Below are positions 2-51,859 of a stretch of DNA of 64,000 nucleotides, piece after piece (the first letter of the stretch is position 1; each line of letters begins with the position of its first letter). The stretch is from Deltaproteobacteria bacterium. GTDB taxonomy: Bacteria > Lernaellota > Lernaellaia > JACKCT01. The notes below the pieces were generated by a model. That model ran no database searches and had not been told where the DNA came from. It saw only the letters and a program-made list of their open reading frames with translations. The stretch is from NCBI GenBank assembly GCA_020633895.1, contig JACKCT010000001.1:462130-526129 (forward strand), in the 5' to 3' direction. The position numbers were made by a program, and so were the translations under genes.

Positions 2-1003
2 CACCGCCAGACGCTGCCCGAAGACCTGATGCATGGCCTCATCGACGATCTGGCCGACCTGGGCACGCAGCGCGTGCGTTTCACCGGCGGCGGCGATCCG
101 TTCGTGCATCCGAAGATGATCGAGTTTTTGGAGCACGTGAAGGAGCGGGGCATGATTGCGTGCGTGACGACGAATTTCACGTCGATCACGCAAAAGAAAG
201 TGCATCGCATGGCTGAGATCGGCGTGGACGAAATCACCGCGTCGGTGTGGGCGGGAACGCCGGATATGTACGCGCGCAGCCATCCGGCCAAGACGCAAAA
301 ATCCTTCTGGCAGATCGAGTCGTTCCTGCGCGAGCTGTGCGCCGCGAAAAAGCCCCATATGCAGGTGGTCGTCGCGAATGTGCTGTTTTCCATGAATTAC
401 ATGGAGACACGGGAGATGCTGGACTTCGCGTTGCGCGTCGGCGCGGACGGCGTGTACTACACCGTCGTCGATTCGGTCGCCAAGCCCACGGACGGTCTGC
501 TGCTCACGCCGCCCCATCTGTCGGTGCTGCGTTCCCACTTGGACGAAGTGAAGCAGCGGGTGGACGACGAAAATCAGACCCGGCCCCGGCCGTTCATCCT
601 GGACAACTTCGACGGCCTGATCCGCCGCCTGGACGCGGTGGGCGCGACGCGGGGCGACTACGACCGCCAGACCGTGGACGCCATTCCCTGCTACATCGGG
701 TGGATTTTCGCGCGCATCACGGCGGACGGTAAGGTCGCGCCCTGCTGCCGGGGATCGAACATGCCCTTGGGCGATTTGCATGAGCAGAGCTTCAAGGAGA
801 TCTGGCACGGGCATCTGTACCGGCATTTTCGTAAGATGGCTCTCAACGAAAAGAAGTCCCATCCCTTCTTTAAGCCCATACAATGTCATCGCACTTGCGA
901 TAACCTGATGCACAACGAGAACCATCATCGAAAGATGATGCGGATCACGGCGGAAGAGAAGCGACATTTGATAGATTTCGTGGTCAACGGAGGTTCCCGA
1001 TGA
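2..1003 (+). CDS. radical SAM / SPASM-type auxiliary-cluster domain protein (5'-partial, continues upstream of window)
   Basis: Frame open from nt 2; the fragment starts after the CxxxCxxC motif (FTGGGDPF glycine-rich SAM motif present). C-terminal PCC...GxL...W cysteine-rich region resembles SPASM/twitch domains and is paralogous to 6422.. N-domain and 51860..52870. Stop overlaps next start (ATGA). Confidence 0.7.
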   Translation, partial: HRQTLPEDLMHGLIDDLADLGTQRVRFTGGGDPFVHPKMIEFLEHVKERGMIACVTTNFTSITQKKVHRMAEIGVDEITASVWAGTPDMYARSHPAKTQKSFWQIESFLRELCAAKKPHMQVVVANVLFSMNYMETREMLDFALRVGADGVYYTVVDSVAKPTDGLLLTPPHLSVLRSHLDEVKQRVDDENQTRPRPFILDNFDGLIRRLDAVGATRGDYDRQTVDAIPCYIGWIFARITADGKVAPCCRGSNMPLGDLHEQSFKEIWHGHLYRHFRKMALNEKKSHPFFKPIQCHRTCDNLMHNENHHRKMMRITAEEKRHLIDFVVNGGSR

Positions 1004-1968
1004 GCCGCCGCGTGCTCATCACCGGCGGCGCCGGCTTTATCGGCCACCACCTGTGCCGACGAATGTTGGCGGACGGCTATGAGGTGGGCGTCATCGACAA
1101 CGAGGCCACGGGACGTCGCGAGGACGTGCCCGAGGGCTGCGACTATCTCAAGGGCGACGTGCGCAACCTGGATGACCTGGCCCGGGCGTTCGACCCGGCG
1201 CCGGATGTGGTGTTTCACACCGCCGCCCAGGCGAGCAACATTCGTAGCTTCGACAATCCGCAGGAGGACATGGCCGTCAATCTGCTGGGCACGATCAACG
1301 TGGTCACGAAGTGCCTGGAGCTCAAGGTACCCAAGCTGGTCTATGCCAGCTCCATGACGGCGTACGGGATGATGAACACATTGCCGGTCAACGAACAGAC
1401 GCCCTTGGCGGCGATCTCCTATTACGGCATCGGGAAGGCCGCGGCGGAGAGATTCGTGCTGGCGACGGCGGCGCGGCCCGATCTGAAATCGCCGTTTTCG
1501 GCGACGTGCTTTCGCATGTTCAACGTCTACGGCCCCGGGCAGAGCCTGAGCAATCCGTACCAGGGCGTGCTGGCGATCTTCATCGGCAATGTCATGCGCG
1601 GTGAGCCCTGCCGGGTCGACTCGGACGGGGAGCAGACGCGGGATTTCGTCTACGTGGACGATGTGGCCGAGGCTTGGCGCCGGGCCGCGCACGTGGGCAA
1701 GGCGGATAATCTGGCGGTGAATCTGGGGTCGGGGAAGCAGATCAGCGTGAACGGTTTGGTCCAGGAGACCTGCCGCGCCTTGGGCGTCGATCCGGCGACG
1801 TATCCGTTCAATCATGCGCCCGAACGCCCCGGCGACCAGCGCCATGCCCAGGCCGATGTGGCTCTGGCCAAGAAAGTGCTGGACTGGGAGCCCACGGTCG
1901 ATTTTCCCGAAGGACTCAAACGCACCGTCGCGTGGGCCAAGGACAACGCGGGCGGGGAGGCGGCTTAA
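1000..1968 (+). CDS. NAD-dependent epimerase/dehydratase (GalE/UDP-sugar epimerase family SDR)
   Basis: N-terminal VLITGGAGFIGHHL Rossmann motif; YxxxK-type extended SDR layout over 322 aa; start ATG overlaps upstream stop, stop TAA overlaps next ATG (TAATG). Confidence 0.85.
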   Translation: MSRRVLITGGAGFIGHHLCRRMLADGYEVGVIDNEATGRREDVPEGCDYLKGDVRNLDDLARAFDPAPDVVFHTAAQASNIRSFDNPQEDMAVNLLGTINVVTKCLELKVPKLVYASSMTAYGMMNTLPVNEQTPLAAISYYGIGKAAAERFVLATAARPDLKSPFSATCFRMFNVYGPGQSLSNPYQGVLAIFIGNVMRGEPCRVDSDGEQTRDFVYVDDVAEAWRRAAHVGKADNLAVNLGSGKQISVNGLVQETCRALGVDPATYPFNHAPERPGDQRHAQADVALAKKVLDWEPTVDFPEGLKRTVAWAKDNAGGEAA

Positions 1969-3056
1969 TGAGCCAGTTCATGTCCGCCATTGAAAGCCAG
2001 TTGATGAACTTCAAGGCGTTCCGCCCGTTCTTCACGCCCGGCCGGGTGCTGCGCGACGCGGTGACGTTCCCGAAGGACTATTACCTGGGCGACGGCAAGA
2101 CGACGCGCTTTCCTTCGATCATCAACCTGAACATCACCACCGTATGCAATCTGAAATGCCCCTTCTGCTTCAACATGGACATCCTCGGCAAACGCACCGA
2201 ACTGTCCACCGAGCAGATGGAGGACATCGTCGATCAGGTCGCGGCGAACCGGGGCGGGCTGTTCCTCTCCGGCGGCGAGCCCTTCGCCCGCAAGGACATC
2301 TTCGAGATCATTGAACACGCCAAGTCCAAGGGCGTGCCCGTCGGTGTCGTCACCAACGCCACGCTCTTCACCCGCGAGAAGGTGCAGCGCCTGTACGACA
2401 TCGGCCTGGACGTGGTCGTCATCAGTTTCCACGGCACCGAGGAAGCCCACGACAAGGCCGTCCTGATGAAGGGCGCCTACAAGAAGACGTTGCAGGCCCT
2501 CAAATGGTTCGCGGAAATCTTCCCGTCGCCGGGGCCGATGATCAACTACGTCCTCACCGAGCACTCGATTCCCCATATGTCGGATTTCTTTAAGGAAATC
2601 GGTGATATCCCGAATGTCGCCAAGCGCCTGTCCCACCTGAATTTCGTGACGCCGGACGAGGCGAAGGCCAACGAGACTTATTGGATGGAGAAGTTCGGCG
2701 AGGCGCCCCAGTTGCTGCAGTACGAGTACCACCCGTCCGACCGGATGTACGAGCCCATCATCCAACAGCTCGAACGCAATCCCGAGATCTTCACCAAGCC
2801 TGTCATCAATCGGGAAGAAATGAAGACCTGGTACTCGGATCGCTTCGATCTCAAGCGCCGGTGCGTGTTTATCTGGAAGTCCACGTTCATCAACTCGGAC
2901 GGGGATATGTACCCTTGTCAGTTCCTGATGATGAAGATGGGCAACATCAAGGAACATTCCATCGAGGAGCTGTGGAACGGGGAGAAATACCGGCGATTCC
3001 GCGCCCTTTTGCGAGAAGGTCTCACGCCCGGTTGCGCCCGCTGCTGCAAGCTTTAA
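1968..3056 (+). CDS. radical SAM protein with C-terminal SPASM-like cysteine-rich domain
   Basis: CNLKCPFC (Cx3Cx2C) at N-terminus, LSGGEPF SAM-binding motif, C-terminal YPCQ...GNIKEHSIEELW...GCARCC cluster. Confidence 0.75.
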   Translation: MSQFMSAIESQLMNFKAFRPFFTPGRVLRDAVTFPKDYYLGDGKTTRFPSIINLNITTVCNLKCPFCFNMDILGKRTELSTEQMEDIVDQVAANRGGLFLSGGEPFARKDIFEIIEHAKSKGVPVGVVTNATLFTREKVQRLYDIGLDVVVISFHGTEEAHDKAVLMKGAYKKTLQALKWFAEIFPSPGPMINYVLTEHSIPHMSDFFKEIGDIPNVAKRLSHLNFVTPDEAKANETYWMEKFGEAPQLLQYEYHPSDRMYEPIIQQLERNPEIFTKPVINREEMKTWYSDRFDLKRRCVFIWKSTFINSDGDMYPCQFLMMKMGNIKEHSIEELWNGEKYRRFRALLREGLTPGCARCCKL

Positions 3057-3065
3057 AATCCGCGC

Positions 3066-4769
3066 ATGATTGTTCTCGGGATCTCGGATAACCACGGCTC
3101 CGGCGCCGCGCTGGTGCGCGACGGGATGCTCGTCGCCGCGGTGAATCAGGAGCGCCTCAATCGGGAGAAAAACTCCCTGGCTTTTCCCTGGGAGGCCATC
3201 GACGAGGTGCTCAAGATCGGCCAGGTCACGCCGGCGGACGTGGACCTGATCTCCGTGGGCAGCCAATTCACCCCGGTCTTTTTCCTGAGACTGGTCAAGT
3301 CGATCCACCAGCGCGCGAAAGACTCCACCAGCCAGTTCTCGCCGATCTACGACCTCTACGTCCTCTATCACCTGCTGGTCAAAAAGATTCGGCTGCTGCG
3401 TTGGGTGGAGATGCTTCTGTCCCGCGCCATGCTCACCCGACAGTTCCAAAGGCGTGGATATCGTTGCGATATTCACCTGATCGAGCATCACGAGGCCCAC
3501 GCCTACTCGACCTATTTGACCGGCCCGTTCGAGAAGGCCATGGTGGTCACTTGCGACGCCATGGGCGACGGCGTTTCGGCGACCGTGGGCCTGGGATCGG
3601 ACGGGCGCATCCGGCGCGTTTTCGAGCAGGACGGGCGTTGCGCGTTCAATCCGTATTACTCGCGGATCACCGAATTGCTGGGCTTTCGGCCCAATCGCCA
3701 CGAAGGCAAGGTGACGGGCCTGGCGGCCTACGGCGATCCGGAGAAGCTCCTGGCGGATTTTCGCCGTCACGCCCATTTCGTCGGGCCCGGATTTTCCCGT
3801 TTCCGTTTGTGGACCCCACGTCAGCAAACCAACGGTTTCTATGGGAAAATCAGGCATTATGGCCGTGAAGATATCGCCGCGGCCGCTCAAAGGAACCTGG
3901 AGGTTCAGATCGGGGCCTTTATTCGTTATTGGAAGGACAAATTAGGCGCCGAGCACGTGACTTTGGCGGGCGGGATCTTCGAGAATGTGAAACTCAATCA
4001 GCGGGTGCACGAGGTGCCGGGCGTGGCGGGTGTTTACATCTTTCCCAACATGTCCGACGGCGGCTTGGCCAGCGGCGCGGCGTTGTTTTCGTCGCGGGCT
4101 CCGCGCCGTGCCCTTGAAAGCGTTTTTTTGGGCGGCGGGTTCGATCGGGAGGTGATCGAGGCGGCGGCGGCGCGAAGCGGCGTGGCCTACGACGAGCCCG
4201 AGGATTTGGCCGCCGAGTGCGCGCGCCTGCTGGCCGACTGGCAGGTGGTGGTGCGATACGCCGGGCGGATGGAATACGGCCCCCGGGCATTGGGGCATCG
4301 TTCGATCCTCTATCGCCCCGACGATCGCGCCATTAACGACTGGCTCAACGTGAAGTTGCGCCGCACCGAGTTCATGCCCTTCGCGCCGGTGGTGCGCGAC
4401 GAGCGGGCGGCCGAGTGTTTTGTGCATCTGGACGGCGCCGAGTTTACGGCCCGGTTCATGAACGTCTGTTTCGATTGCACGCCGTATATGGCCGAAAAGT
4501 GCCCCGGCGTGGTGCATGTGGACGGTACGGCGCGGCCGCAGATTCTGCGTCGGACCGATGATGAGGAGTATTATCGGCTCCTGGAACAGTTCGAGGCGTT
4601 GACCGGCCTGCCGGCCCTGGTGAACACCTCGTTCAATATGCACGAGGAGCCGATTGTGCATACGCCCGACGAAGCCGTCCGGGCGTTTCAACAGGCCGAG
4701 CTGCCGTATATGGCGCTGGGACCGTTTTTGTTGCGGGCCGAGGAGCACCGCATCGCCCGCCGAAATTGA
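3066..4769 (+). CDS. carbamoyltransferase, NodU/CmcH (TobZ-like) family
   Basis: 567 aa; N-terminal ILGISDNHGSGAALV...NQERLNREK ASKHA/Kae1-like fold signature and HHEAHAYSTY metal motif, C-terminal YrdC-like carbamoyltransferase C domain; embedded in rSAM operon. Confidence 0.8.
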   Translation: MIVLGISDNHGSGAALVRDGMLVAAVNQERLNREKNSLAFPWEAIDEVLKIGQVTPADVDLISVGSQFTPVFFLRLVKSIHQRAKDSTSQFSPIYDLYVLYHLLVKKIRLLRWVEMLLSRAMLTRQFQRRGYRCDIHLIEHHEAHAYSTYLTGPFEKAMVVTCDAMGDGVSATVGLGSDGRIRRVFEQDGRCAFNPYYSRITELLGFRPNRHEGKVTGLAAYGDPEKLLADFRRHAHFVGPGFSRFRLWTPRQQTNGFYGKIRHYGREDIAAAAQRNLEVQIGAFIRYWKDKLGAEHVTLAGGIFENVKLNQRVHEVPGVAGVYIFPNMSDGGLASGAALFSSRAPRRALESVFLGGGFDREVIEAAAARSGVAYDEPEDLAAECARLLADWQVVVRYAGRMEYGPRALGHRSILYRPDDRAINDWLNVKLRRTEFMPFAPVVRDERAAECFVHLDGAEFTARFMNVCFDCTPYMAEKCPGVVHVDGTARPQILRRTDDEEYYRLLEQFEALTGLPALVNTSFNMHEEPIVHTPDEAVRAFQQAELPYMALGPFLLRAEEHRIARRN

Positions 4770-4784
4770 GGCGGGGCATGAGGG

Positions 4785-6422
4785 ATGCCGCGTATGGGTT
4801 TTGAAAAGCGACGACGCACGCCGCCGCAGGACGCCGACCGGGCCGCCGGGGGCGTGGCGCGCGTGTTGAAGATCGCCGATGACGAGGGCGTGCCGGTCGC
4901 CGAGACCCCCCCGGACATCCTGCTGTTCTCGCCGCCGCCTTGGCTGGTGACGGGCCCGCCGCTGGGTTTGGCCGCCGTGTCGGCGTACCTCAAGGCCCAG
5001 GGCTGGCGGGTCAAGATCATCGACGGCAACACCAAGGCCTACCACGACGCCAAGCCCAAGGATCAACTCCTATGGCGTTGGGAATATTCGGCGTTTTGGG
5101 AGGACGAGGCCGAGGTGGAGAAACGCTTCGGCGCGATGCTGCGCCGATTGGCCGAGGAAGCCGCGGCGGTCGGATCCTGGGCGATCGGCGTGAACGTGGT
5201 GCATCGCAAGGAGGCGGCGGTGGCCATCTTCCTGCGACGCCTCAAGGAGCTTCGACCGGACCTGCGCATTTTCGTCGGCGGACCGGGAGCGGGTTGGAAG
5301 GAATCCCGCGATCACCTGCGCGAGCTGGCCGGGGACCTGGTGGACGGCTTCGTGGTGGGCGAGGGCGAGGTCGTCTGCGACGAACTGCTGCGACGCATGC
5401 GCAAGGGTGAGAGCCTGGAAAACCTACCCGGATTCATGATCGCCGGGCCCGACGGCGAGGCGAAGTTCAAGCCGGGGCGCGTGATCCTGGACATGAACAA
5501 GCTGCCCGTGCCCGATTTCGGCGACTTCGAAATGGAGCACTACGACGACAATTCCCTGGTCGTGGAATGGAACCGGGGATGCGTCGCGCGATGCACCTAT
5601 TGCTCGGTCAACGACTTCTGGAACGCGTTCCGCTTCAAGGGCGCCAAGGCCGTCGCCCACGAACTCAAGACCCTCCACGACCGCCACGGCATCGAGAAAT
5701 TCGTCATCGTCGACCCCATGGTCAACGGCAACCCCGAGCACCTGGACGCCATCTGTGAGGCGATCATCGAGTCGGGGGTGAAGGTGCGTTGGTCGGCGGG
5801 CATCTCGCCCAACCGGGACGTGCCCAAGTCGACCTTCGTGAAGATGTCGGCGGCGGGGTGCTACCAACTCGAGTTCGGCGTGGACTCGGGATCGAACAAG
5901 ATCCTTCGCAAGATGGGCAAGCGCTTCAAGGCCGACCAGGCCGGACGCATGATGCGCGACGCCCACAACGCCGGCATCGACGTGATGCTCTACCTGATCG
6001 TCGGTTTCCCCGGCGAGACCGACGAGACCGTGCAGGAGACCATCGACTGGCTCGACGAGTACGGCGAGTCCATCGACATGGTGCGTTCGATCAATAGCCT
6101 GACCATCGAGGACGGCACGGCGGTCGAGCAGCGTTCCGAATTGTTCGGCGTGGAGAAGGACAAATCGGACGTGAACTGGCGCGACAACTGGCACGAGTCG
6201 GGCAGCTCGCCCGAGATGCGCAAGGCCCGGGTGGATCGGGTGATCGACAAACTCAAGGAACTGAAAATCCCCATCGAAGCCGAGATTATCGCCGAGCAGA
6301 CCGCCGGCGAGGATGGACCGACACTGCCCGACTGGGGCGGGGCCACGCAGTCCGCCGGACCGAGCGCCGGCGCGGGAACCTTCGGCTGCGCGTCCTTCCC
6401 CACGACGGGTGACGAGGGCTGA
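4785..6422 (+). CDS. B12-binding domain radical SAM protein (class B rSAM, stand-alone module)
   Basis: N-terminal cobalamin-binding-like region ILLFSPPPWLVTGPPLGLAAVSAYL...VKIIDGN; rSAM core VVEWNRGCVARCTYC (Cx3Cx2C); stop TGA overlaps start of next gene (TGATG). Same module architecture as the four repeats inside 6422..14053. Confidence 0.8.
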   Translation: MPRMGFEKRRRTPPQDADRAAGGVARVLKIADDEGVPVAETPPDILLFSPPPWLVTGPPLGLAAVSAYLKAQGWRVKIIDGNTKAYHDAKPKDQLLWRWEYSAFWEDEAEVEKRFGAMLRRLAEEAAAVGSWAIGVNVVHRKEAAVAIFLRRLKELRPDLRIFVGGPGAGWKESRDHLRELAGDLVDGFVVGEGEVVCDELLRRMRKGESLENLPGFMIAGPDGEAKFKPGRVILDMNKLPVPDFGDFEMEHYDDNSLVVEWNRGCVARCTYCSVNDFWNAFRFKGAKAVAHELKTLHDRHGIEKFVIVDPMVNGNPEHLDAICEAIIESGVKVRWSAGISPNRDVPKSTFVKMSAAGCYQLEFGVDSGSNKILRKMGKRFKADQAGRMMRDAHNAGIDVMLYLIVGFPGETDETVQETIDWLDEYGESIDMVRSINSLTIEDGTAVEQRSELFGVEKDKSDVNWRDNWHESGSSPEMRKARVDRVIDKLKELKIPIEAEIIAEQTAGEDGPTLPDWGGATQSAGPSAGAGTFGCASFPTTGDEG

Positions 6423-9400
6423 TGCACGCCCACGACGCCAAGAAGACGATTCTGTCGCCGGAACACCTGATGATCCAGACGACATCCCGGTGCAACTCGG
6501 GGTGCGTCATGTGTCCTTGGCCCGACACCGCCTCCGCCCAGCCCCAGGGCGATATGTCCGACGCCCTTTACCGACGCATTGTCGACGAAGTGCGCGAGTT
6601 TCCCGATCTGTCGCGCATCATGCTCTACCTGATGAACGAGCCCCTGCTCGACAAGAAGCTGCCCGAGCGCGTGAACCTGATGCGCAAGGCCCGGCCGTAC
6701 GATGAAATCTACATCGTCACCAACGGCCTTCTTCTCGACCGGGACTTGGGCGACCGGCTGATCGACTCGGGCCTGTCGTGGCTGTCGATCTCCATCCACG
6801 CCCTGGAACCGGCGACCTACGAGAAGATCACCAAGCGCAAGGACTGGGCCAAGCGCCGCGAGCCGATCGAGCGATTCATCGACCGGGCCATGGCCGCTCG
6901 GGGCGAGGACTTCGTGCAGATCAACATCACGAAGGTGCGCCCCCATATTTCCGACGAGGAATACAACGCCGCCGCCGAGCACTGGCGTTCGCTCGGTGTC
7001 CAGCGCGTCGATCTGGACGACGGCTATATCTCCCGCGCGGGCAATGTGGAGGTCTTCGGCCACCAGCGCCTGTCGACGCGCCGCACCAGCGGATGCAAAA
7101 CCATCTGGGCGTACAAGATGGCCCACGTGCTCTACAACGGCGACGTGCTGCCGTGCTGCATGGACTGGCGGCGCAAGGCGGTGTTCGGCAATGTGGAGCG
7201 CGACGGCGGCCTGCTTAACGTCTGGCGGGGCCAGGGGCGCCACGGCTTCCTGGACAAACTGGGTTCGGGCGACGAGTTGCCCGAGGACTTCCTGTGCGTG
7301 GGCTGCGAGGACGCCATCCCCGCGGAGGGCGCGGAGACGGTCGTCATCAACGAAGCCAAAAGCCCGCCGCCGCCGAAGAAAGCCGCCGTGCCCGTCAAGT
7401 TCGTCTCCAAGTCGGAAGCGGCGGTGACATACGCCGACGGCACTTCCGTCGCCGCGAGCGAGACCATCGTCCTTGCCGCCGCCCCGACCCCGGCCAAGGC
7501 GAACGGCCATTCCAACGGCAGTTCTAACGGCAGTTCCAACAGCAGCGCAAACGGCCATGACAACGGCGCGGCCGCCTTCGACACCGGCAGTTCGAATCCG
7601 ATCATCGCGACCTACGACGCCGCCGTCGACGAGAGCTTCCGCAAAGGCGGTCGCGAGACCGAGCCGACGGATTTTTCGAAGGGCGAGGTGGATGTCGTCT
7701 TCTTCGCGCCGCCGCCGTGGCTGACCAGCGCGCCGCCTCTGGGCTTGGCGTCGATCACCGGCTTCCTGCGCAAAATGGGCTGGCGAGTGAAGGTCGTGGA
7801 CGGCAACGTGCGCCTGTATCATTTCGCCGGGAAGACGCACCAGAACCTGTGGGACTGGGAGCGCGGGCCGTTCTGGGAGAAGTACGACAACGTTGCGGGC
7901 GTCTTCGGCGAAGAATTGCGCAAGATGGCCCGGGAAGTCGCCGAACTGCGGCCGAGCGTGGTGGGCGTGAACTGCGTCTCGCGCAAGGAAGTGGCCTTCG
8001 CGATCTTCCTGGACGAACTCAAAAAGCACCACCCGGAATGCAAAGTCTTTATCGGCGGGTCGGGTATCGGCCACTTCGAATTGCGTCGCCATGTGCGCAG
8101 CATCGTTCGCGACTACATGGACGGGTTCCTGGTCGGCGAGGGCGAGCTGATGATGCACAAGGTCCTCACGCGCATGCGCGACGGACGGACCTATGACGAC
8201 ATCCCCGGCGTGGCGACGTACGTCTTGGAAACCAGCGAGGAGATCTTCACGCCCCAGGAGGAGACGCCGGACCTGGGCATCCTGGCGCCGCCCGACTACA
8301 CCGATTTCGATCTGTCGGCCTATTCGTCGCCGAGCCTTATCGTCGAGTGGAGTCGCGGGTGCGTGGGGCGGTGTACATTCTGCAATATCAACGACCTGTG
8401 GAAGAAGGTGCGTGTCAAGGCGGCCGAGCAGGTCGTCGAGGAGATCAAGACTCTCCAGACCCGCCACGGCACCGAGTATTTCTCCGTCGTCGATCCCATG
8501 ACCAACAACGACGTGGACACCCTGGAAGCCGTTTGCGACGGTCTGATCCGGGAGAAAATCCACATCAAGTGGTCGTGCGGCATGTCGCCCAATCGGCGCC
8601 TCACCGCCGAGCAGTTCCGCAAGATGGCTGCCGCCGGGTGCTATCGCGTGGAATACGGCGTCGAGTCCGGTTCGGACACGGTGCTCAAGCGCATGGGCAA
8701 GGAATACAAGGCCGAAGTGGCCGAACAAATGATCCGTGACGCTCACAACGCGGGCATCATGGTCGTGCTATATTTGATCGTCGGTTTCCCCGGAGAGACG
8801 GAAGAGGACCTTCAGCAGACGATCGCGTTCCTGGAACGCAACGCGAAATACATCTCGCTGGTGCGCAGCGTGAACGGGATGGTCATCATCCACGGCGCGC
8901 CGGTGGAGCGAAAGCCCGAGGTCTTCGGCATCGGCGAGTTGGACCGGCTGGAGGACGGCTGGACCAACCGCTGGAGCGCCGGGGACAACACACCCGAGCT
9001 TCGGACCGAACGGGCGGCGCGGGTGACACGGAAGTTGAACGACCTCGGCATCCCGGTCGAGTTCGAGAATGTGGAAGAGGTTATGCCCAACGCGATGCTC
9101 TACGACAAACGCATGGACCAGACCAAGGAGCGCTTGGCCGCCGTCGAGAAGGATCTGAACGATCTGCTCGGCCTGATGGACAAGCTGATGCGCGGCGAGC
9201 CCACGCGGCAGGTGGTCGGCCACGACCAGTTGGCGTTGGTGCTCTGTCCCGTTTGGGGGGTCGACTCGCCGCCCCTGGGGTTGGCGGCCATGGCGGGCTT
9301 TGTGCGCAATCAGGGCTACGAGCCGATGGTGATCGACTTCAACATCGAACTGTTCCACAAGGCGAACGAAAAGCAAAAACCCTTCTTCGAGGAAGACTCT

Positions 9401-12400
9401 TTCCGTCATTGGACCGACGAGGCCGGCGCCGCGAAAATCGTCGCCGCCTTCACCAAGGAGATCGACGAGCTGGTCGACCGGCTCATCGACTCGGGCCGCA
9501 GCATGATCGGCTTCACGATCTATTCGGCCAACCGCTTGTTCGCCAAGGAAGTCATGCGGCGCATCAAGGCCCGCGATCCCAAACGCGTCATCGTCGTCGG
9601 CGGCCGGGGCGCCCACACGAAAAACGAGCGCCTGCTCTTCCCTCGCGATCTGGTCGACTACTTCATCGTGGGCGAGGGCGAGACGTCGCTGATCCCGTTG
9701 ATGGAGGAAGTCTTCGCCGGCAAATCGGGCCAAGGGCTGCCGGGCGTGGACACCTACGACGGATTCGAACTCACCGGCTACGAGCCGCGCCCGCGCCTGC
9801 ACGACCTGACGCTTCTGCCGCCCCCGGCGTACGACATGCTGCCGCTGGACCTGTATCGCGGCGACGAGATCCCCGTGCAGTTCTCGCGGGGGTGCGTGGC
9901 TCATTGCACCTTCTGCAACGACTCGCACAAGAACACGGGCTTTCGTTCCCGGCCCGGCAAGCACATGGCCGCCGAGATCAAGCAACTGGTCGAAGTCACG
10001 GGACGCAAGCGTTTCCGCTTTAACGACCTGCTGATCAACGGCAACCTGGAAGTGCTCGAGGAGTTGTGCGACGAGCTGATCGCCATGGACCTGGGCATCA
10101 AGTGGATCGCCCTGTTCCAGCCTCGCGGCGACATGAAGGACGAACTGCTTTTCAAGATGGCCAAGGCCGGATGCTACACGGTCAACATGGGCGTGGAGCA
10201 CGGCTCGACGCGCATCCTGAAGATCATGGGCAAGGGCTTCAAGGTCGCCGACATGGAGCGGGCGCTGCGCCAGACGCGGGCGGCCGGCATCAACACGATG
10301 CTCAATTTCATCATCGGCTATCCCGGCGAGACGCGGGAGGATGTCGACGAGACCATCGACTTCATCCGACGCAATCGCGAAAACATCTGCGGCGTCACGT
10401 CGGTCAACGCGTGCATCCTGCTTGAGGATTCGGCCATCGAACGCCGCGCGATCAAGCTGGGCGTCACGTACGACGACTATGCGACGCGGGACGTGAACTG
10501 GGTCCTGGGCGACAACACGCCCGACGAGCGCCAGGCGCGTCTGCGTAAGTTCGTGGAGTTTTTGGAAGCCGAGAACATTCCGTACCTGGTCACGAATCTC
10601 AAGGAACGCGCGGCGAACCTGGACGACCTGTCCATCGACGACATCGCCGCCGCGCCGGCCAACGGCGCCTCCAACGGTGAAACGCACGCCGTTCCCGGCG
10701 AATTGACGAATGTCGATCCCGAGCAGTTCGAATCGGTGGACGGTTTCATCCAAACCCGCGAGACCGGGTCGAACATCGCCGCCTACGCGACGCACGGCGA
10801 CCTGGGCGGCGGCCACGCCGAGGACGACGGCTTTGATCCGGCCAAGGGCGAGCCGCGATGGGAGGTCATTCCCACGGACTACGCGGACGTCATCTTCATC
10901 AAGTGTCCCCCCTGGGGCGTGGACGTCCCGCCGCTGGCCATTGCCTACCTGTCCGAGATGTGCCGCCAGGACGGCCTGAAGGTGCAGGCGGTCGACCTGA
11001 ACGTGAAGGTCTACAACCGCTGTCACGATCGCGGCCTGTGGGATATGGACCGCTACGCCGAGTGGGCCGACCCGAAATTCTTCCCCAAGACCTACAAGGA
11101 TTTGTGGGAGTGGACCGGGCACTACCTCAAGCAGATCGCCGAACATCCCGCGCCGGTCATCGGCCTGTCCACCAACACGGCCAACTACCGCTTCACCGTC
11201 GAGACGGCCCGCCGCCTCAAGGAGATGGCGCCGGAGAAGACCATCGTCATCGGCGGCACGGGTATTTCCAACAGTTTCGACGTGGAAGAACTCACGCCCA
11301 CCGACGCGGACTACCTCTTTTTCGGCGAAGCGGACATGGGCATCGCCAAGTTCGTGCGGGCCGTCGTGGACAAAAAAGATCCGGGAGACATCGAGGGCCT
11401 GATCAAGGTCGGCACCGAGTTTACTTACAGCTCGGTGCAGCGGGCGATTGTCGAGAAGGGCCTGAAGGTCGCCAACCCGACGATGATCGAACTGAACCTG
11501 AACGAGTACAGCTCCTCGGCCGTGCCGCTGCTGGCCAGCCGAGGATGCGTACGCCGATGCACCTTCTGCAACGACCATCAGATCTATCAGAAGTACCGTT
11601 ATCGCGAGGCCGAGGACGTGTTCAAGGACATGGAGTGGCACGTCAAGAATCGCGGCACGTCCCACTTCGCTTTCCTGGACCTGCTGCTCAACGGCAACAT
11701 GAAGACCCTCGTGGGTTTCTGCGATCTGGTCATCGAATCGGGCTACAAGGTGGCCTGGGGCGGGCAATGCATCGTGCGCAAGGAGATGCGCGCGGACGTG
11801 TTGCAGAAGATGGCCAAGGCCGGGTGCATGAGCATCGTGTACGGCATGGAGAGTTTCTCGGATGAAACGCTCAAGCTCATGCGCAAGTACTACACGCAGG
11901 AGTTGGCCAAGCGCGTCCTGACCGACACGAAAGAGGCGGGCATCGAGCCGATCATCAACATCATCTGCGGCTTCCCCGGCGAGACCGAGGAAGACTTCAT
12001 GCAGACCTACAACTTCATCAAGGACAATCCGGACATCGTCGGCCAGGTGGCGTCGGTGTCGCCGTGCCTGATCAACCTGGGTTCGGAACTGTTCGATCGC
12101 TACAAGGATTTCGACATCCGCTTCCCCGAGGAAGACGGGTCGGTCAAGTGGTACACGGGTGATAAGTCCAACACCTACGACATCCGGCTGCGTCGGGTGA
12201 TGATGATTACCGAGCTTCTCGCCAGCCGCGACAAGCACATCCACACGGTTAACATCTACGACAACGACGACAAAAAGGTCATGCGCGCCCGAGACGACAA
12301 GGCACGCTTCGACCGGGCCGTCGCGTCGGGTGGGTCGTTGCTCGGGGCGCCGCTGGTGGACGGGTCATCCCGCGCGGAGGCGGGGGAGTCGCCGGGAAAA

Positions 12401-14053
12401 TCTGAGACCGATGTCGCGGCGGCGGCGGCCTCGGTCGAGAATGCGCTGCCGCAAGTCGCCGTTCCGCAAAATGGAGCGCCGACGGTCGAAATCCACGCGC
12501 CGGGCACGAACGGCCATGCGAACGGTTCGACAAACGGCCACGCCAATGGTCGAACAAACGGGCACGGTAACGGCGTTGGCCAGCACCACATCGAGGACGT
12601 CGCGCCGGTGCAAAAGGCCGACATCGTTCTCGCGCTGCTGCCGCCTTGGGGTGTGAATTTCCCGCCGCTGGGTATCGCCAGCCTGGCCGCGTCGGCGCGG
12701 GACGCGGGCTTCAGCGTTTACGCCCGGGACATGAACATCGAGTGCTTCGATTATTGCGGCGAGTACCTGCGTTCCTGGTGGGAGCCGGAAAACCTCAAGT
12801 ATTGGTCGCCGGGCAAGCGTCTGGACGAAGTCTCCGCGTTCATCATGCCCAAGATCGACGCCTTCATCGAGGACGCCATCCGCCGCCGCCCGCTCGTGGT
12901 CGGCCTGTCGACGAACGAATCGAACCTGACCTTCTCCACCCGCGTCGCCAAAAAAATCAAAGAGGCGCTGCCCGATTGCAAAATCATGTTGGGCGGGCCG
13001 GGGGTGGCGTGGCCGGCGGATCGGCAAAAACTCGTCGGCGAGGCCTTCGACGCGTGCATTATCGGCGAGGGCGAGGACAGCCTGAACCAGGTGCTGACCA
13101 AGATGAAGGCCGGTGAGTCGTTGGACGATGTGAGCGGCCTGGAGTGGCTTTCCGGCGAGATCAAGAAGATTCCCGACAAGGGCGATCTGGTCAAATCGCT
13201 GGACGACCTGCCGCTGCCGCTGTTCGACGAGTTCCCGCTGCATATGTATCAGACCAAGCAGTTCCCGCTGATGATCGGCCGGGGTTGCACCAACCGATGC
13301 ACTTTCTGCAACGATCCGCAGATCACCCCGAAGTATCGCTTCAAGTCGCCCGAGCGCGTGCTCGACGAGGTGATGGCCTACAAGGAGCGCTACGACGCCC
13401 ACGACTTCCACTTCTGCGATCTGCTCATCAACGCCCACATCCGCAACCTGCGTGACTTCGCCCAGATGGTCGTCGACAAGGGCGTGCGCATGGCGTACTC
13501 GGGGCAGGCGCTGATCAAAAAACAGATGGACGACGAAACGCTGCGTATCATCGCCAAGTCGGGATGCACCAGCATGGTCTTCGGCGTGGAGAGTTTTTCC
13601 GATCGCGTGCTGACCGACATGCGCAAGGGCTATACGGTGCAGCAGGCCAAGGAATGCATCGAGCGGGTGCATAACGCGGGGATCAAGGTGATCGTCAATC
13701 TGATCGTCGGCTTCCCGACCGAGACGGAGGTGGAATTCCAGGAGACGATCGATTTCCTACGCGAGAACCACGGCCTCATCGATTCGATCTCGGCCCTGTC
13801 GGCGTGCATCGTGACGGCGCAGTCGGATCTGGAGAAGAATCCGGACAAATACGGCATCGTCCTGCCCAAGCCCGAGCATTGGTGCCAGTGGTACTCCAAG
13901 GACGGCGCCAACACCTACGACGTGCGCCAGGAACGGCTCTATCGCATGCTCGACGTGCTCAATGAGTTGAAAATCTCCCACGGGATGACGAATCGTTATT
14001 TGGAGATGATCGACGAGCGCCAATCGGAAGGTGAGCAACCGGCGGCCCATTGA
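6422..14053 (+). CDS. giant (2543 aa) multi-domain radical SAM fusion protein: SPASM-type rSAM domain + four tandem B12-binding rSAM modules
   Basis: Single uninterrupted 7.6-kb ORF. Domain 1 (nt ~6422-7320): TSRCNSGCVMCPW + LPCCMDWRRK...LCVGCE SPASM-like. Modules 2-5 begin at ~7689, ~9229, ~10885, ~12620, each with (F/L)xPPPW/PVWG..PPLGLA B12-like N-terminus and RGCxxxCTFCN rSAM motif (IVEWSRGCVGRCTFCN, VQFSRGCVAHCTFCN, LLASRGCVRRCTFCN, LMIGRGCTNRCTFCN). Inter-domain linkers are Asn/Gly/His/Ser-rich (NGHSNGSSNGSS..., NGHANGSTNGHANGRTNGHGNG). Confidence 0.7.
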   Translation: MHAHDAKKTILSPEHLMIQTTSRCNSGCVMCPWPDTASAQPQGDMSDALYRRIVDEVREFPDLSRIMLYLMNEPLLDKKLPERVNLMRKARPYDEIYIVTNGLLLDRDLGDRLIDSGLSWLSISIHALEPATYEKITKRKDWAKRREPIERFIDRAMAARGEDFVQINITKVRPHISDEEYNAAAEHWRSLGVQRVDLDDGYISRAGNVEVFGHQRLSTRRTSGCKTIWAYKMAHVLYNGDVLPCCMDWRRKAVFGNVERDGGLLNVWRGQGRHGFLDKLGSGDELPEDFLCVGCEDAIPAEGAETVVINEAKSPPPPKKAAVPVKFVSKSEAAVTYADGTSVAASETIVLAAAPTPAKANGHSNGSSNGSSNSSANGHDNGAAAFDTGSSNPIIATYDAAVDESFRKGGRETEPTDFSKGEVDVVFFAPPPWLTSAPPLGLASITGFLRKMGWRVKVVDGNVRLYHFAGKTHQNLWDWERGPFWEKYDNVAGVFGEELRKMAREVAELRPSVVGVNCVSRKEVAFAIFLDELKKHHPECKVFIGGSGIGHFELRRHVRSIVRDYMDGFLVGEGELMMHKVLTRMRDGRTYDDIPGVATYVLETSEEIFTPQEETPDLGILAPPDYTDFDLSAYSSPSLIVEWSRGCVGRCTFCNINDLWKKVRVKAAEQVVEEIKTLQTRHGTEYFSVVDPMTNNDVDTLEAVCDGLIREKIHIKWSCGMSPNRRLTAEQFRKMAAAGCYRVEYGVESGSDTVLKRMGKEYKAEVAEQMIRDAHNAGIMVVLYLIVGFPGETEEDLQQTIAFLERNAKYISLVRSVNGMVIIHGAPVERKPEVFGIGELDRLEDGWTNRWSAGDNTPELRTERAARVTRKLNDLGIPVEFENVEEVMPNAMLYDKRMDQTKERLAAVEKDLNDLLGLMDKLMRGEPTRQVVGHDQLALVLCPVWGVDSPPLGLAAMAGFVRNQGYEPMVIDFNIELFHKANEKQKPFFEEDSFRHWTDEAGAAKIVAAFTKEIDELVDRLIDSGRSMIGFTIYSANRLFAKEVMRRIKARDPKRVIVVGGRGAHTKNERLLFPRDLVDYFIVGEGETSLIPLMEEVFAGKSGQGLPGVDTYDGFELTGYEPRPRLHDLTLLPPPAYDMLPLDLYRGDEIPVQFSRGCVAHCTFCNDSHKNTGFRSRPGKHMAAEIKQLVEVTGRKRFRFNDLLINGNLEVLEELCDELIAMDLGIKWIALFQPRGDMKDELLFKMAKAGCYTVNMGVEHGSTRILKIMGKGFKVADMERALRQTRAAGINTMLNFIIGYPGETREDVDETIDFIRRNRENICGVTSVNACILLEDSAIERRAIKLGVTYDDYATRDVNWVLGDNTPDERQARLRKFVEFLEAENIPYLVTNLKERAANLDDLSIDDIAAAPANGASNGETHAVPGELTNVDPEQFESVDGFIQTRETGSNIAAYATHGDLGGGHAEDDGFDPAKGEPRWEVIPTDYADVIFIKCPPWGVDVPPLAIAYLSEMCRQDGLKVQAVDLNVKVYNRCHDRGLWDMDRYAEWADPKFFPKTYKDLWEWTGHYLKQIAEHPAPVIGLSTNTANYRFTVETARRLKEMAPEKTIVIGGTGISNSFDVEELTPTDADYLFFGEADMGIAKFVRAVVDKKDPGDIEGLIKVGTEFTYSSVQRAIVEKGLKVANPTMIELNLNEYSSSAVPLLASRGCVRRCTFCNDHQIYQKYRYREAEDVFKDMEWHVKNRGTSHFAFLDLLLNGNMKTLVGFCDLVIESGYKVAWGGQCIVRKEMRADVLQKMAKAGCMSIVYGMESFSDETLKLMRKYYTQELAKRVLTDTKEAGIEPIINIICGFPGETEEDFMQTYNFIKDNPDIVGQVASVSPCLINLGSELFDRYKDFDIRFPEEDGSVKWYTGDKSNTYDIRLRRVMMITELLASRDKHIHTVNIYDNDDKKVMRARDDKARFDRAVASGGSLLGAPLVDGSSRAEAGESPGKSETDVAAAAASVENALPQVAVPQNGAPTVEIHAPGTNGHANGSTNGHANGRTNGHGNGVGQHHIEDVAPVQKADIVLALLPPWGVNFPPLGIASLAASARDAGFSVYARDMNIECFDYCGEYLRSWWEPENLKYWSPGKRLDEVSAFIMPKIDAFIEDAIRRRPLVVGLSTNESNLTFSTRVAKKIKEALPDCKIMLGGPGVAWPADRQKLVGEAFDACIIGEGEDSLNQVLTKMKAGESLDDVSGLEWLSGEIKKIPDKGDLVKSLDDLPLPLFDEFPLHMYQTKQFPLMIGRGCTNRCTFCNDPQITPKYRFKSPERVLDEVMAYKERYDAHDFHFCDLLINAHIRNLRDFAQMVVDKGVRMAYSGQALIKKQMDDETLRIIAKSGCTSMVFGVESFSDRVLTDMRKGYTVQQAKECIERVHNAGIKVIVNLIVGFPTETEVEFQETIDFLRENHGLIDSISALSACIVTAQSDLEKNPDKYGIVLPKPEHWCQWYSKDGANTYDVRQERLYRMLDVLNELKISHGMTNRYLEMIDERQSEGEQPAAH

Positions 14054-14158: not shown

Positions 14159-14542
14159 CTAACTCCCCATCATCCTTCCCAGCAAAATCCCCAGCGCGCC
14201 CGCGCCCAGGCCGAAGAACAGGTTTGCGCCGATGTTGCCCAGCGCAACGCCCGGCTTGCCGATCTGCACGAAATGCAGCGTCTCGTAGCTGAAGGTGGAG
14301 AAGGTCGTGAACGCGCCGAGGAAGCCGACGGTGACGGCTGTTTTCATGTCGATGGGCATCAATTCCTTGCCCGCGATGGACGCGGCGAGGATGAAGGCGA
14401 GGATGAACGAGCCGACCACGTTGACGATCAGCGTGCTCAAGGCAAGCTTGCCTTCGAAGGCGGTGTAGGCCCATTTCCCGACGCCGAAGCGAGCCAGGGC
14501 GCCGGCCGCGCCGGCCAGGGCAATGTAGACATAGAGCATCAT
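14159..14542 (-). CDS. crcB: fluoride ion channel CrcB/Fluc
   Basis: Approx. 127 aa, four TM segments, GFLGAFTTFSTFSYE signature typical of CrcB; start chosen at MMLYVYIALAG rather than the upstream alternative-start extension. Confidence 0.8.
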   Translation of the reverse strand: MMLYVYIALAGAAGALARFGVGKWAYTAFEGKLALSTLIVNVVGSFILAFILAASIAGKELMPIDMKTAVTVGFLGAFTTFSTFSYETLHFVQIGKPGVALGNIGANLFFGLGAGALGILLGRMMGS

Positions 14543-14651
14543 CGTCACATCCCGCGTTGCACGTAAAGCCAGCCTAAACGTCCGCGACCGATCCGCCAAG
14601 ACCCGCCGCGAAGGCGTTTGACGCTCGGGTGATTCTCGCTAAATTAACGTC

Positions 14652-16103: not shown

Positions 16104-16176
16104 CAGTCCCAACGGGAATCGAACCCGTGTTTTCGGCGTGAGAGGCCGACGTCCTAGGCCGCTAGACGATGGGACC
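16104..16176 (-). tRNA. tRNA-Glu (anticodon CUC)
   Basis: Minus-strand sequence GGTCCCATCGTCTAGCGGCCTAGGACGTCGGCCTCTCACGCCGAAAACACGGGTTCGATTCCCGTTGGGACTG closely matches the canonical bacterial tRNA-Glu cloverleaf; anticodon loop CUCUCAC gives CUC; TTCGATT T-loop. Confidence 0.7.
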
Positions 16177-16265: not shown

Positions 16266-16336
16266 TTCAGGGACTAGGATTCGAACCTAGATAACAGGAG
16301 TCAGAGTCCTGGGTCTTACCATTAGACGATCCCTGA
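16266..16336 (-). tRNA. tRNA-Gln (anticodon CUG)
   Basis: Minus-strand TCAGGGATCGTCTAATGGTAAGACCCAGGACTCTGACTCCTGTTATCTAGGTTCGAATCCTAGTCCCTGAA: 7-bp acceptor stem TCAGGGA/TCCCTGA, D-stem GTCT/AGAC, anticodon stem CAGGA/TCCTG with loop CUCUGAC, T-arm CTAGG-TTCGAAT-CCTAG; U-start typical of tRNA-Gln. Confidence 0.7.
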
Positions 16337-27517: not shown

Positions 27518-29302
<1,785 letters not shown>

Positions 29303-29312
29303 GGGGCGGGCG

Positions 29313-29510
29313 ATGCGCGTGCAGGTCAACGGCGAGTCGATGCACCTCGACGACGCCACGACGCTCAAGGACATCCTGGCCCGCCTGGAGATTCCTCCCC
29401 GCTTCATCGCGGTCGAGCACAACGGCGAGATCTACGACGGTGAGCCCGAGGCGTGCTCGCTTTCCGACGGCGACCGCCTGGAAATCGTCCGCTTCGTCGG
29501 CGGAGGTTGA
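29313..29510 (+). CDS. thiS: sulfur carrier protein ThiS
   Basis: 65 aa, MRVQVNGE... ending in the diglycine VGGG; located between thiC and thiG. Confidence 0.85.
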   Translation: MRVQVNGESMHLDDATTLKDILARLEIPPRFIAVEHNGEIYDGEPEACSLSDGDRLEIVRFVGGG

Positions 29511-29513
29511 GGC

Positions 29514-31450: not shown

Positions 31451-31466
31451 TTCGACACGGACGACC

Positions 31467-39649: not shown

Positions 39650-39697
39650 CCGGTGTACCTCCAAGGCGGCACTGACCGCCAAGACCATTTCATTCAG

Positions 39698-51844: not shown

Positions 51845-51859
51845 GTCGGGACTACCCGA

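Follow-up and report, generated by a model that had tools for sequence, protein, structure and literature searches.

Introduction

What might a bacterium make with an operon in which eight radical S-adenosylmethionine (SAM) domains, five of them in a single protein of 2,543 residues, are packed together with a sugar-type epimerase and a carbamoyltransferase? This question is raised by positions 2..14053 of a 64,000-nt stretch of DNA from a Deltaproteobacteria bacterium (Lernaellota in GTDB; contig JACKCT010000001.1, positions 462,130 to 526,129), here called the window. An earlier interpretation made from the letters alone (the sequence-only reading) had regarded the block as a translationally coupled operon and a candidate new tailoring pathway, with either a modified sugar or glycan or a modified lipid as its product. 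In this study, we establish which genes and fusions make up the operon, how far they are conserved, how its domains correspond between genomes and what surroundings it has in relatives, and propose that the operon builds, and then heavily tailors, a sugar residue or short glycan of the cell envelope (probability about 0.55). In the clade of the window the process would most likely be a decoration of 3-deoxy-D-manno-octulosonic acid (Kdo)-lipid A or of the lipopolysaccharide (LPS) core, and in distant relatives the target would most likely be an O-antigen-like polymer exported by an ABC transporter.

Organisation of the operon

Open reading frame (ORF) calling combined with Pfam and NCBIfam searches reproduced six plus-strand genes in 2..14053. 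Their order was the one given by the sequence-only reading, namely a partial radical SAM-SPASM gene, an epimerase gene, a second radical SAM-SPASM gene, a carbamoyltransferase gene, a B12-binding radical SAM (B12-radical SAM) gene and the gene for the five-domain protein, hereafter the megaprotein. The count of eight radical SAM domains on a single strand was likewise recovered by Pfam. The three start/stop overlaps that had been proposed were read directly from the sequence as ATGA at 1000-1003 (stop of the first ORF and start of the epimerase gene), TAATG at 1966-1970 (epimerase stop and radical SAM start) and TGATG at 6420-6424 (B12-radical SAM stop and megaprotein start). The remaining gaps, earlier put at 10-16 nt, exist and measure 9 nt (3057-3065) and 15 nt (4770-4784), the latter becoming 24 nt if the start of the B12-radical SAM gene used by another gene caller, ATG 4794, is real. 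Shine-Dalgarno-like GGAGG motifs were found upstream of starts in the block, and the GC content at third codon positions was 78-87% in the six frames. The proposal of a translationally coupled operon stands.

Promoter- and terminator-like matches within the block occurred at the same frequency as in shuffled sequence and are uninformative on co-transcription either way. An Rfam scan detected no regulatory RNA in or adjoining the operon, and no hydrophobic, membrane-like segment was predicted in any of the six proteins. The 3' end of the operon is placed at 14053, because the next gene, crcB (14159..14599), is convergent on the minus strand.

The complete operon in related genomes

The expectation that the operon extends upstream of nt 1 was borne out by L001, a 6.3-kb Logan contig that is identical to the window and adds 300 nt upstream (loci from the searches are numbered L001 onwards); it was the sole contig returned when the exact epimerase protein was looked up. 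The first ORF (2..1003, +) encodes 333 aa in the window (SPASM 50.7 bits, Radical_SAM 35.6 bits); in L001 it is extended to at least 433 aa and is still open, and its CDNNCLAC motif sits 60-83 nt upstream of window nt 1. Its orthologues in L002, L005, L006 and L007 are 905-939 aa long and carry Carbam_trans_N, Radical_SAM and SPASM domains, the closest being 64-65% identical. As judged by these orthologues, the first ORF encodes the C-terminal end of a larger protein of about 900 aa (905-939), a fusion between a Kae1-like carbamoyltransferase N-domain and a radical SAM-twitch/SPASM unit. A 48-nt exact search of metagenome contigs for the upstream DNA of the window returned nothing, and a protein-guided metagenome scan for the same DNA found no relative closer than 66%.

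Co-occurrence across genomes had been suggested as a check on the operon, and the gene set was found clustered, in the order given below, in L002/L012, L005, L006, L007, L008, L020 and L022. In these relatives the operon begins two genes before the first ORF of the window. Gene 1 encodes a glycosyltransferase of family 4 (GT4) fused to a radical SAM-SPASM unit (902-1,057 aa), gene 2 a separate YrdC-like carbamoyltransferase C-domain (~207 aa), and gene 3 the Kae1-like N-domain/radical SAM-SPASM fusion (905-939 aa). These are followed by the SDR (short-chain dehydrogenase/reductase) epimerase (gene 4), the radical SAM-SPASM protein (gene 5), the full carbamoyltransferase (gene 6), the B12-radical SAM protein, which is optional (gene 7), and the megaprotein (gene 8). 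The GT4-radical SAM fusion opens the operon in L002, L005, L006 and L007, and its GT4 half best matches exopolysaccharide, WcaI and MshA glycosyltransferases. By this comparison, the block in the window is the 3' two-thirds of a conserved operon, with the tail of gene 3 as its first ORF, and the complete system carries nine radical SAM domains, the GT4-fused one coming on top of the eight of the block.

Genes 2 and 3 together represent a split and reordered carbamoyltransferase. The YrdC-like gene directly precedes and overlaps the Kae1-like/radical SAM-SPASM fusion gene, an arrangement found in L002 (2913-6253) and also in L005, L006, L007, L008, L010 and L013. As it is kept in many genomes, it is not a frameshift artefact.

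Epimerase, radical SAM and carbamoyltransferase components

The gene at 1000..1968 (+) encodes a 322-aa GalE-like extended SDR of the nucleotide-sugar epimerase/dehydratase type (PF01370, 185 bits), with the motifs GxxGxxG at aa 9-15 and YxxxK at aa 142-146. Its best solved relatives are the UDP-glucose 4-epimerases 7ys8, 4zrm and 2p5u (166-155 bits), followed by the UDP-glucuronic acid (UDP-GlcA) epimerase MoeE5 and UDP-GlcA decarboxylases. Against the GalE equivalog TIGR01179 it scored 157.8 bits (cut-off 262.3). The protein is a relative, and only a putative member, of the GalE-type UDP-hexose 4-epimerases.

The carbamoyltransferase gene (3066..4769, +) encodes a 567-aa protein in which a Kae1-like N-terminal domain (Carbam_trans_N, PF02543, 115.4 bits) and a YrdC-like C-terminal domain (Carbam_trans_C, PF16861, 187.3 bits) both exceed the Pfam cut-offs. 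An HxxxH motif lies at aa 137-141. Scores against solved members of the family were 217 bits for GdmN, 191 for NovN and 163 for TobZ; the NodU equivalog was matched below its cut-off (117.7, cut-off 1000). The NodU/TobZ-type label of the sequence-only reading is upheld to this extent, and by its domains and nearest relatives the product is clearly related to the O-carbamoyltransferases of the TobZ/GdmN/NovN type. Among the operon genes it is the most constant partner of the megaprotein gene, located directly upstream of it in L002, L003, L007 and L108 and one gene away in the window, L005 and L006.

Between these two genes lies the stand-alone radical SAM gene (1968..3056, +), the 362-aa product of which has a C-terminal SPASM/twitch domain (Radical_SAM 88.9 bits, SPASM 62.9 bits) and the motif CNLKCPFC at aa 60. 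It showed only weak similarity to SkfB, PqqE, BlsE, GDGT-MAS and BtrN, and every NCBIfam match was far below its cut-off. Orthologues occupy the same position in L002, L005, L007 and L008; L006 lacks one.

The SPASM designation used in the sequence-only reading needs correcting. PF13186 (SPASM) scores above its cut-off in the block, at 32-63 bits, while the seven-cysteine motif of full SPASM domains (CX9-15GX4C-gap-CX2CX5CX3C-gap-C) is absent from all four SPASM-type domain types. Each of the four conserves 4-5 C-terminal cysteines, five in the case of the stand-alone enzyme. Because 4-5 rather than seven cysteines are kept, these domains are described here as twitch-like, a pattern that fits one auxiliary cluster, with the cluster content predicted from the cysteines.

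The stand-alone B12-radical SAM enzyme and the megaprotein

All eight radical SAM domains of the operon block have a CxxxCxxC [4Fe-4S] motif and match PF04055 above its cut-off. In the stand-alone B12-radical SAM enzyme and in four megaprotein domains a B12-binding domain (PF02310) precedes the radical SAM core, the arrangement that defines class B. The stand-alone enzyme (4785..6422, +; 545 aa) has the motif CVARCTYC at aa 266 and scored 79.3 bits for Radical_SAM and 32.9 bits for B12-binding (cut-off 32.1). It is 46% identical to megaprotein domain two and ~32% identical to domain three, and on this basis is considered a paralogue of domain two. It occurs only in the window, L005 and L006.

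The megaprotein gene (6422..14053, +) encodes 2,543 aa with five Radical_SAM matches (373 bits), four B12-binding matches (166 bits) and one SPASM match. The first domain (D1; aa 1-300, 6422..7321, +) is a twitch-type radical SAM domain with CNSGCVMC at aa 24 and a SPASM score of 32.2 bits. The four others each combine B12-binding and radical SAM parts: D2 (~aa 421-935, 7682..9226, +; CVGRCTFC at aa 647), D3 (~aa 936-1450, 9227..10771, +; CVAHCTFC at aa 1158), D4 (~aa 1488-2000, 10883..12421, +; CVRRCTFC at aa 1709) and D5 (~aa 2066-2543, 12617..14050, +; CTNRCTFC at aa 2289). The linkers between domains are of low complexity, with NGSS and NGHANG repeats.

P0001, a protein from an independent NCBI metagenome-assembled genome (MAG), matches the megaprotein with 100% identity along 2,346 aa. 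Another 23 homologues, all cluster representatives, have lengths of 1,513-2,742 aa and are 27-59% identical to it; their labels are Deltaproteobacteria, Myxococcales, Candidatus Lernaella stagnicola and Omnitrophica. The family comprises 24 clusters. The identical copy and the 23 homologues indicate that the giant ORF is genuine and not an assembly artefact. Complete close family members have five CxxxCxxC motifs at conserved positions and retain position-specific forms of the motif, with CxxHC in domain three and C[IV]RRC in domain four, the latter present at that position in most members. The nearest match of each domain is its positional counterpart in another genome (41-74% identity), whereas the paralogous B12-radical SAM domains within one megaprotein are 31-34% identical. 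By this positional orthology, the megaprotein is an old fusion of five distinct, individually selected enzymes rather than a recent internal repeat, and with motifs and positional orthology kept at 27-59% identity, every domain is under selection.

The D1 family conserves cysteines 24, 28, 31, 225, 245, 246, 292 and 295 (22 sequences). An AlphaFold2 (AF2) model of D1 (pLDDT 83.6, pTM 0.85) gave DesII and BtrN as its best Foldseek matches (E 3e-10 to 1e-9; TM 0.71 normalised to BtrN), with CteB, MoaA and SuiB slightly behind. A D1 profile retrieved 881 cluster representatives at E<=1e-30 among 1.84 billion, many of them stand-alone proteins of ~300 aa, which the source databases name just 'radical SAM protein with SPASM domain'.

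The B12-radical SAM domains fit no curated family. The best NCBIfam match of the stand-alone enzyme is TIGR03975, at 139.3 bits, and the megaprotein scores 545.8 bits against the same model over four domains, or ~136 each, the cut-off for a single enzyme being 281.85. ApyD, PhpK and the ladderane-lipid B12-radical SAM model come next. Against solved structures there were weak matches to QCMT (9ccb), AprD4, OxsB, CysS, TokK and TsrM; for D3 the best of these weak matches were 9ccb (56.7 bits) and AprD4, and D5 matched TokK weakly.

Genomic context in relatives

A scan of 185,579 species genomes with an alignment of the GT4-radical SAM fusion gave 171 relatives, and 78 distinct loci were retrieved. 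They came from MAGs labelled Lernaellota/FEN-1099, Myxococcota, Cloacimonadota, Wallbacteria, Omnitrophota, Planctomycetia, 'Rickettsiales', Desulfobacterota and DPANN archaea. B12-radical SAM proteins were present in at least 49 of the 78, D1-type domains in at least 19 and carbamoyltransferases in at least 17, these counts being lower bounds as many contigs are short. The other neighbours that recurred most often were ABC ATPases (40), family 2 glycosyltransferases (GT2; 24 and 13), a GT4-like protein (22), ABC-2/Wzm-like permeases (17), type I phosphodiesterase (9) and GDSL proteins (7). The neighbours in L004 include Wzt_C, PMT_2 and Bac_transf.

In two loci closely related to the window, L012 and L008, the genes directly upstream of the operon and on the same strand encode LpxI, a 535-aa protein, PAP2-LpxB, MsbA, an ArnT-like PMT_2 protein and the Kdo transferase WaaA. 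The same lpxI-waaA block lies upstream of the operon in L020 and L022, with gaps of ~1.8 and 6 kb. The 535-aa protein, which has no Pfam match, is encoded between lpxI and PAP2-lpxB (1575-3179 in L012; also in L008 and L020). A deeper subclade, represented by L003 (Lernaella) and L108, has the order carbamoyltransferase, megaprotein, (GDSL), MBOAT, GDSL, the first GDSL gene of L108 overlapping the stop of the megaprotein gene. An MBOAT protein together with an SGNH/GDSL protein is the standard O-acylation machinery for extracytoplasmic glycopolymers such as alginate, cellulose, peptidoglycan and teichoic acids. In both genomes a PolyA_pol gene, of the CCA-adding/poly(A) polymerase family, was also observed directly before the carbamoyltransferase-megaprotein pair (L003 6735-8249, L108 6775-8256).

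Radical SAM domains of the operon families were also found fused to other glycosyltransferases: a B12-radical SAM domain to GT2 in L004, a radical SAM domain to GT9 in L104 and a D1-type domain to a double GT4 in L106. In L105 a D1-type gene stands between genes for an LpxL-type lipid A acyltransferase and a GT4. Similar clusters encode a 1,929-aa fusion of one B12-radical SAM and three radical SAM-SPASM units (L046, Ca. Saelkia) and a triple radical SAM-SPASM protein (L038). Taken together, the families of radical SAM domains are functionally linked, with a variable mode of fusion. The window itself holds a second glycan cluster at 49348-63998, with GT2, several GT4, a KpsC/KpsS-like Capsule_synth protein and a 1,100-aa glycosyltransferase-like protein. 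A stand-alone D1-type gene (51860..52870, -), 28% identical to D1, lies inside it, so that this genome employs D1-type proteins in no fewer than two sugar clusters.

Runs of up to about nine tandem stand-alone radical SAM-SPASM genes were observed in L079 (11377-21193) and in L036, L066, L076 and others, from Omnitrophota and Planctomycetia MAGs. These runs adjoin B12-radical SAM/radical SAM-SPASM fusions, GT4 genes and carbamoyltransferases, and look like a version of the cluster denser in radical SAM genes.

Proposed function and alternative explanations

What is said here of the substrate, of all the reaction types and of the sequence of steps is a proposal, the chemistry envisaged being C-methylation, oxidation or epimerisation, and O-carbamoylation. 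The enzymes would be soluble and cytoplasmic. The GalE-like SDR would provide the required UDP-sugar epimer, which the GT4 domain, fused to radical SAM and encoded upstream of the window in relatives, would join to an acceptor. Four twitch-type radical SAM domains (GT4-fused, carbamoyltransferase-fused, stand-alone and D1) would then remove hydrogen at unactivated C-H bonds of the sugar and so bring about oxidation, epimerisation or deoxygenation, as do BtrN, DesII and NeoN. Five distinct B12-radical SAM domains (the stand-alone enzyme and D2-D5) would each act on one position, most likely by C-methylation. Last, the two carbamoyltransferases, one split with its Kae1-like half fused to radical SAM and one full-length, would form carbamoyl-AMP and O-carbamoylate hydroxyls. 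The five-site chain and the radical SAM-transferase fusions would hold a lipid-anchored or polymeric substrate in one assembly.

A glycan substrate is favoured because radical SAM domains are fused to GT4, GT2, GT9 and double GT4 partners, and because the SDR is nearest to UDP-glucose 4-epimerases and the carbamoyltransferase is a relative of TobZ, GdmN and NovN. It is favoured also by the LPS, polysaccharide, exporter and MBOAT/GDSL genes beside the operon in relatives, by the LpxL-like, GT9 and GT4 genes that D1-type proteins adjoin elsewhere, and by the D1 model, which is nearest to the sugar-acting DesII and BtrN, together with the twitch-like character of the four SPASM-type domains. Of the two product hypotheses in the sequence-only reading, the sugar or glycan gains from the GT4-radical SAM fusion, the SDR, the carbamoyltransferase and the neighbours, while the lipid loses the support it had drawn from a downstream reductase gene, discussed below.

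Several observations weigh against the proposed envelope glycan. The lpx/waaA linkage comes from four loci of one subclade (L008, L012, L020 and L022) and not from the genome of the window. L010 and L013 hold the first three operon genes with no LPS genes nearby, their neighbours being fatty-acid beta-oxidation genes and unknowns, which are uninformative. Neighbourhood evidence is correlative in any case, and ABC ATPases and glycosyltransferases are common genes. The Foldseek E-values of D1 for DesII and BtrN are just 10-100 times better than those for peptide-modifying radical SAM enzymes. The best scores of the B12-radical SAM domains, although below the cut-offs, are for the C-methyltransferase model TIGR03975, which describes enzymes acting on peptides that are ribosomally synthesised and modified after translation (RiPPs), and for the ladderane-lipid model. 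Finally, class B enzymes include non-methylating members, such as OxsB, which performs a ring contraction; BchE, HpnJ and BzaD are others.

One alternative, which we consider unlikely, is that a free sugar scaffold is tailored into a diffusible small glycoside or pseudo-oligosaccharide, such as an aminoglycoside-like antibiotic, a signal or a compatible solute. Aminoglycoside pathways use BtrN, AprD4 and NeoN-type radical SAM enzymes, the B12-radical SAM enzymes GenK and GenD1, TobZ, and GT4 glycosyltransferases. The operon draws on the same enzyme families, with weak matches to BtrN, AprD4 and TobZ, its proteins are all predicted to be soluble, and L010 and L013 carry the first module away from envelope genes. 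The operon nevertheless lacks a cyclitol synthase, an aminotransferase, a resistance gene and a dedicated small-molecule exporter. The families of 2-deoxy-scyllo-inosose (DOI) synthase and of L-glutamine:DOI aminotransferase were both absent from the window operon and from the megaprotein loci of nine relatives, so the aminoglycoside analogy of the sequence-only reading holds for the enzyme families and fails for the synthase and aminotransferase. Moreover, the family spans many uncultivated phyla, including Omnitrophota and DPANN archaea, and recurs beside lpx/waaA, Wzm/Wzt, MBOAT/GDSL, GT9 and LpxL genes. Given this taxonomic spread and envelope-gene context, a cell-surface glycan fits better than an antibiotic.

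It is quite unlikely that the target is a lipid, with the B12-radical SAM enzymes C-methylating or cross-linking acyl or isoprenoid chains and the sugar enzymes making a glycolipid head group only, although the acyl chains of lipid A may be such a target. The lipid A genes upstream in close relatives and the MBOAT genes adjoining the megaprotein gene in L003 and L108 agree with it, as do sub-threshold matches to the ladderane-lipid model TIGR04072 (115 bits for the stand-alone enzyme), HpnJ, HpnR and Tes and the presence of GDGT-MAS among the weak structural matches; all these lipid-family scores are, however, far under their cut-offs and under the RiPP-methylase score. The operon proteins have no predicted membrane segment, and the radical SAM fusions are to glycosyl- and carbamoyltransferases, not to lipid enzymes. 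The sequence-only reading had taken as a lipid clue a geranylgeranyl-reductase-like (GGR-like) FAD enzyme gene at 14652..16034 (+), which does not bear this out. Its product best matches an archaeal-type digeranylgeranylglycerophospholipid (DGGGPL) reductase model, whose cut-off of 580 is far above the 161 bits scored. Because the convergent crcB gene intervenes and the GGR-like gene has its own promoter-like site (14618-14645), it is taken to be a unit apart from the operon, and no homologue of either crcB or the GGR-like gene was found in any of the 84 related loci checked.

Maturation of a ribosomal peptide or protein, proteusin/polytheonamide-like and proceeding by C-methylation and epimerisation or cross-linking to glycosylation and carbamoylation, is very unlikely: every B12-radical SAM domain has as its best curated match TIGR03975, 'RiPP maturation radical SAM C-methyltransferase', with ApyD next, SPASM enzymes are typical peptide maturases, and CteB and SuiB are among the D1 structural matches, but each domain reaches ~136-139 bits against the cut-off of 281.85, the auxiliary-cluster domains are twitch-like rather than full SPASM, the intergenic gaps of <=15 nt inside the block leave no space for a precursor gene, which agrees with the absence of one noted in the sequence-only reading, and no conserved small ORF, RiPP recognition element (RRE) domain, protease or RiPP transporter was called in the nine megaprotein loci of relatives for which genes had been called. 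A role in defence was also considered and rejected, PADLOC giving generic pVip matches only (21-66 bits) and the candidate family PDC-M51A 56 bits for the stand-alone B12-radical SAM enzyme and 162 bits summed over the four megaprotein domains.

Flanking genes and other features of the window

The 105-nt spacer 3' of the megaprotein stop contains an inverted repeat (AGCGGGTT...AACCCGCT). The crcB gene that follows (14159..14599, -) encodes a CrcB-like fluoride channel (PF02537, 80 bits), and Rfam gave no fluoride riboswitch that attained the gathering score. Two tRNA genes (16104-16176 and 16266-16336, both -) lie a short way downstream of the GGR-like gene, with a strong terminator-like hairpin beside them (16093-16065, -).

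A thiamine pyrophosphate (TPP) riboswitch (27527-27643, 55.2 bits) precedes a thiamine operon (27527-32177, +) encoding ThiC, ThiG, a ThiH-like radical SAM protein with a BATS domain, and ThiE. Since there is overlap between the riboswitch and the first ATG of thiC as the ORF is listed, the true start is probably further downstream; the NCBI protein has 526 aa. At 36951-39688 (-) two tandem paralogous pectinacetylesterase-like (PAE) genes adjoin the gene for a 521-aa protein with a spermidine-synthase domain.

Novelty and significance

The component families are all known, and sugar tailoring by radical SAM enzymes, B12-radical SAM enzymes and carbamoyltransferases has precedents in antibiotic pathways. 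What appears to be new is the five-radical SAM megaenzyme with domains orthologous by position, the radical SAM fusions, with a glycosyltransferase in one case and with one half of a split carbamoyltransferase in another, the LPS/polysaccharide envelope context, and the breadth of the family in uncultivated phyla. To our knowledge, sugar tailoring by radical SAM or B12-radical SAM enzymes has been known only from a handful of antibiotic pathways, and no envelope glycan, LPS included, has been linked to it.

A full-text search of the papers in one literature library found no description of the operon or the megaenzyme, and the view of the sequence-only reading that this is an uncharacterised tailoring pathway stands. 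In a 2026 preprint on Omnitrophota, radical SAM and GT1 domains figure only among the Pfam families often present in giant proteins, and the Lernaellota paper makes no mention of radical SAM.

If the operon does tailor an envelope glycan, surface sugars of a new kind, C-branched and carbamoylated, are predicted, with possible effects on phage and host recognition in microbial dark matter. Enzymology would gain at least nine new radical SAM activities, and a natural multi-radical SAM scaffold on which to study the cooperation of several oxygen-sensitive radical sites on one substrate. We suggest more tentatively that many uncultivated phyla may diversify their surface glycans by radical hypermodification, using assembly-line-like multi-radical SAM proteins to place several C-methyl, oxo, deoxy or epimeric centres, together with carbamates, on LPS or O-antigen-like sugars. 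Such a process would be to carbohydrates what polytheonamide-type hypermodification is to peptides, and would bring C-branched envelope sugars of a new class along with new chemistries of class B radical SAM enzymes. Should the product be a lipid or a peptide instead, the megaenzyme would still be one for which no precedent was found.

Comparison with known systems

The operon shares with the radical SAM enzymes of lipid pathways (Tes/GDGT-MAS, GrsA/B, HpnP/HpnR/HpnJ and the ladderane B12-radical SAM enzyme) the same two radical SAM classes, a predicted action on inert C-H bonds and sub-threshold matches. It differs from them in scores far under the cut-offs and in its surroundings, since squalene/hopene, glycerol dialkyl glycerol tetraether (GDGT) and ladderane genes are not nearby and the GGR-like gene is not conserved with the operon.

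TobZ, NodU, CmcH, GdmN and NovN offer a further comparison. The product of 3066..4769 has both domains of these enzymes and scores 163-217 bits to solved members. The second carbamoyltransferase of the operon is unlike them in being split, with the YrdC-like ~207-aa gene placed before the Kae1-like half fused to radical SAM; we know of no described member of the family with such an arrangement.

The Arn pathway, which adds 4-amino-4-deoxy-L-arabinose (L-Ara4N) by way of an ArnA-type SDR and ArnT, resembles the operon, whose SDR is likewise predicted to act on a UDP-sugar, and in the closest relatives genes for an ArnT-like PMT_2 protein, lpxB, msbA and waaA lie directly upstream. GT4 enzymes are typical core glycosyltransferases. 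Unlike Arn, the operon has no aminotransferase or formyltransferase, and its lpx linkage is seen in one subclade and not in the genome of the window. We know of no LPS decoration pathway that uses radical SAM or B12-radical SAM enzymes.

The aminoglycoside tailoring sets have the same kinds of enzyme, namely twitch radical SAM enzymes that attack C-H bonds of a sugar or cyclitol, class B radical SAM enzymes for the C-methylation of sugars, a TobZ-type carbamoyltransferase, GT4 and an NDP-sugar SDR, and the similarity of the operon proteins to BtrN, AprD4 and TobZ is detectable, if weak. In contrast to those sets, the operon has neither DOI synthase nor aminotransferase; its catalytic domains are fused (five radical SAM domains in one chain, radical SAM to GT4, and radical SAM to the Kae1-like half), and its context is one of LPS/polysaccharide genes, not a resistance/export cassette. 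The operon occurs in uncultivated lineages labelled Deltaproteobacteria/Myxococcota, Lernaellota, Omnitrophota, Cloacimonadota and others, and not in actinomycetes.

Polytheonamide biosynthesis, with the B12-radical SAM C-methyltransferases PoyB and PoyC and the radical SAM epimerase PoyD, offers a parallel in the number of radical SAM sites per product and in the multiple C-H functionalisations of one polymer, and TIGR03975 is the nearest model. The operon, however, contains no precursor peptide or room for one, its scores are half the cut-off, and sugar-nucleotide, glycosyl-transfer and carbamoyl-transfer enzymes are integral to it. PoyC is a single iterative enzyme; the operon instead has four or five different B12-radical SAM domains, each conserved by position.

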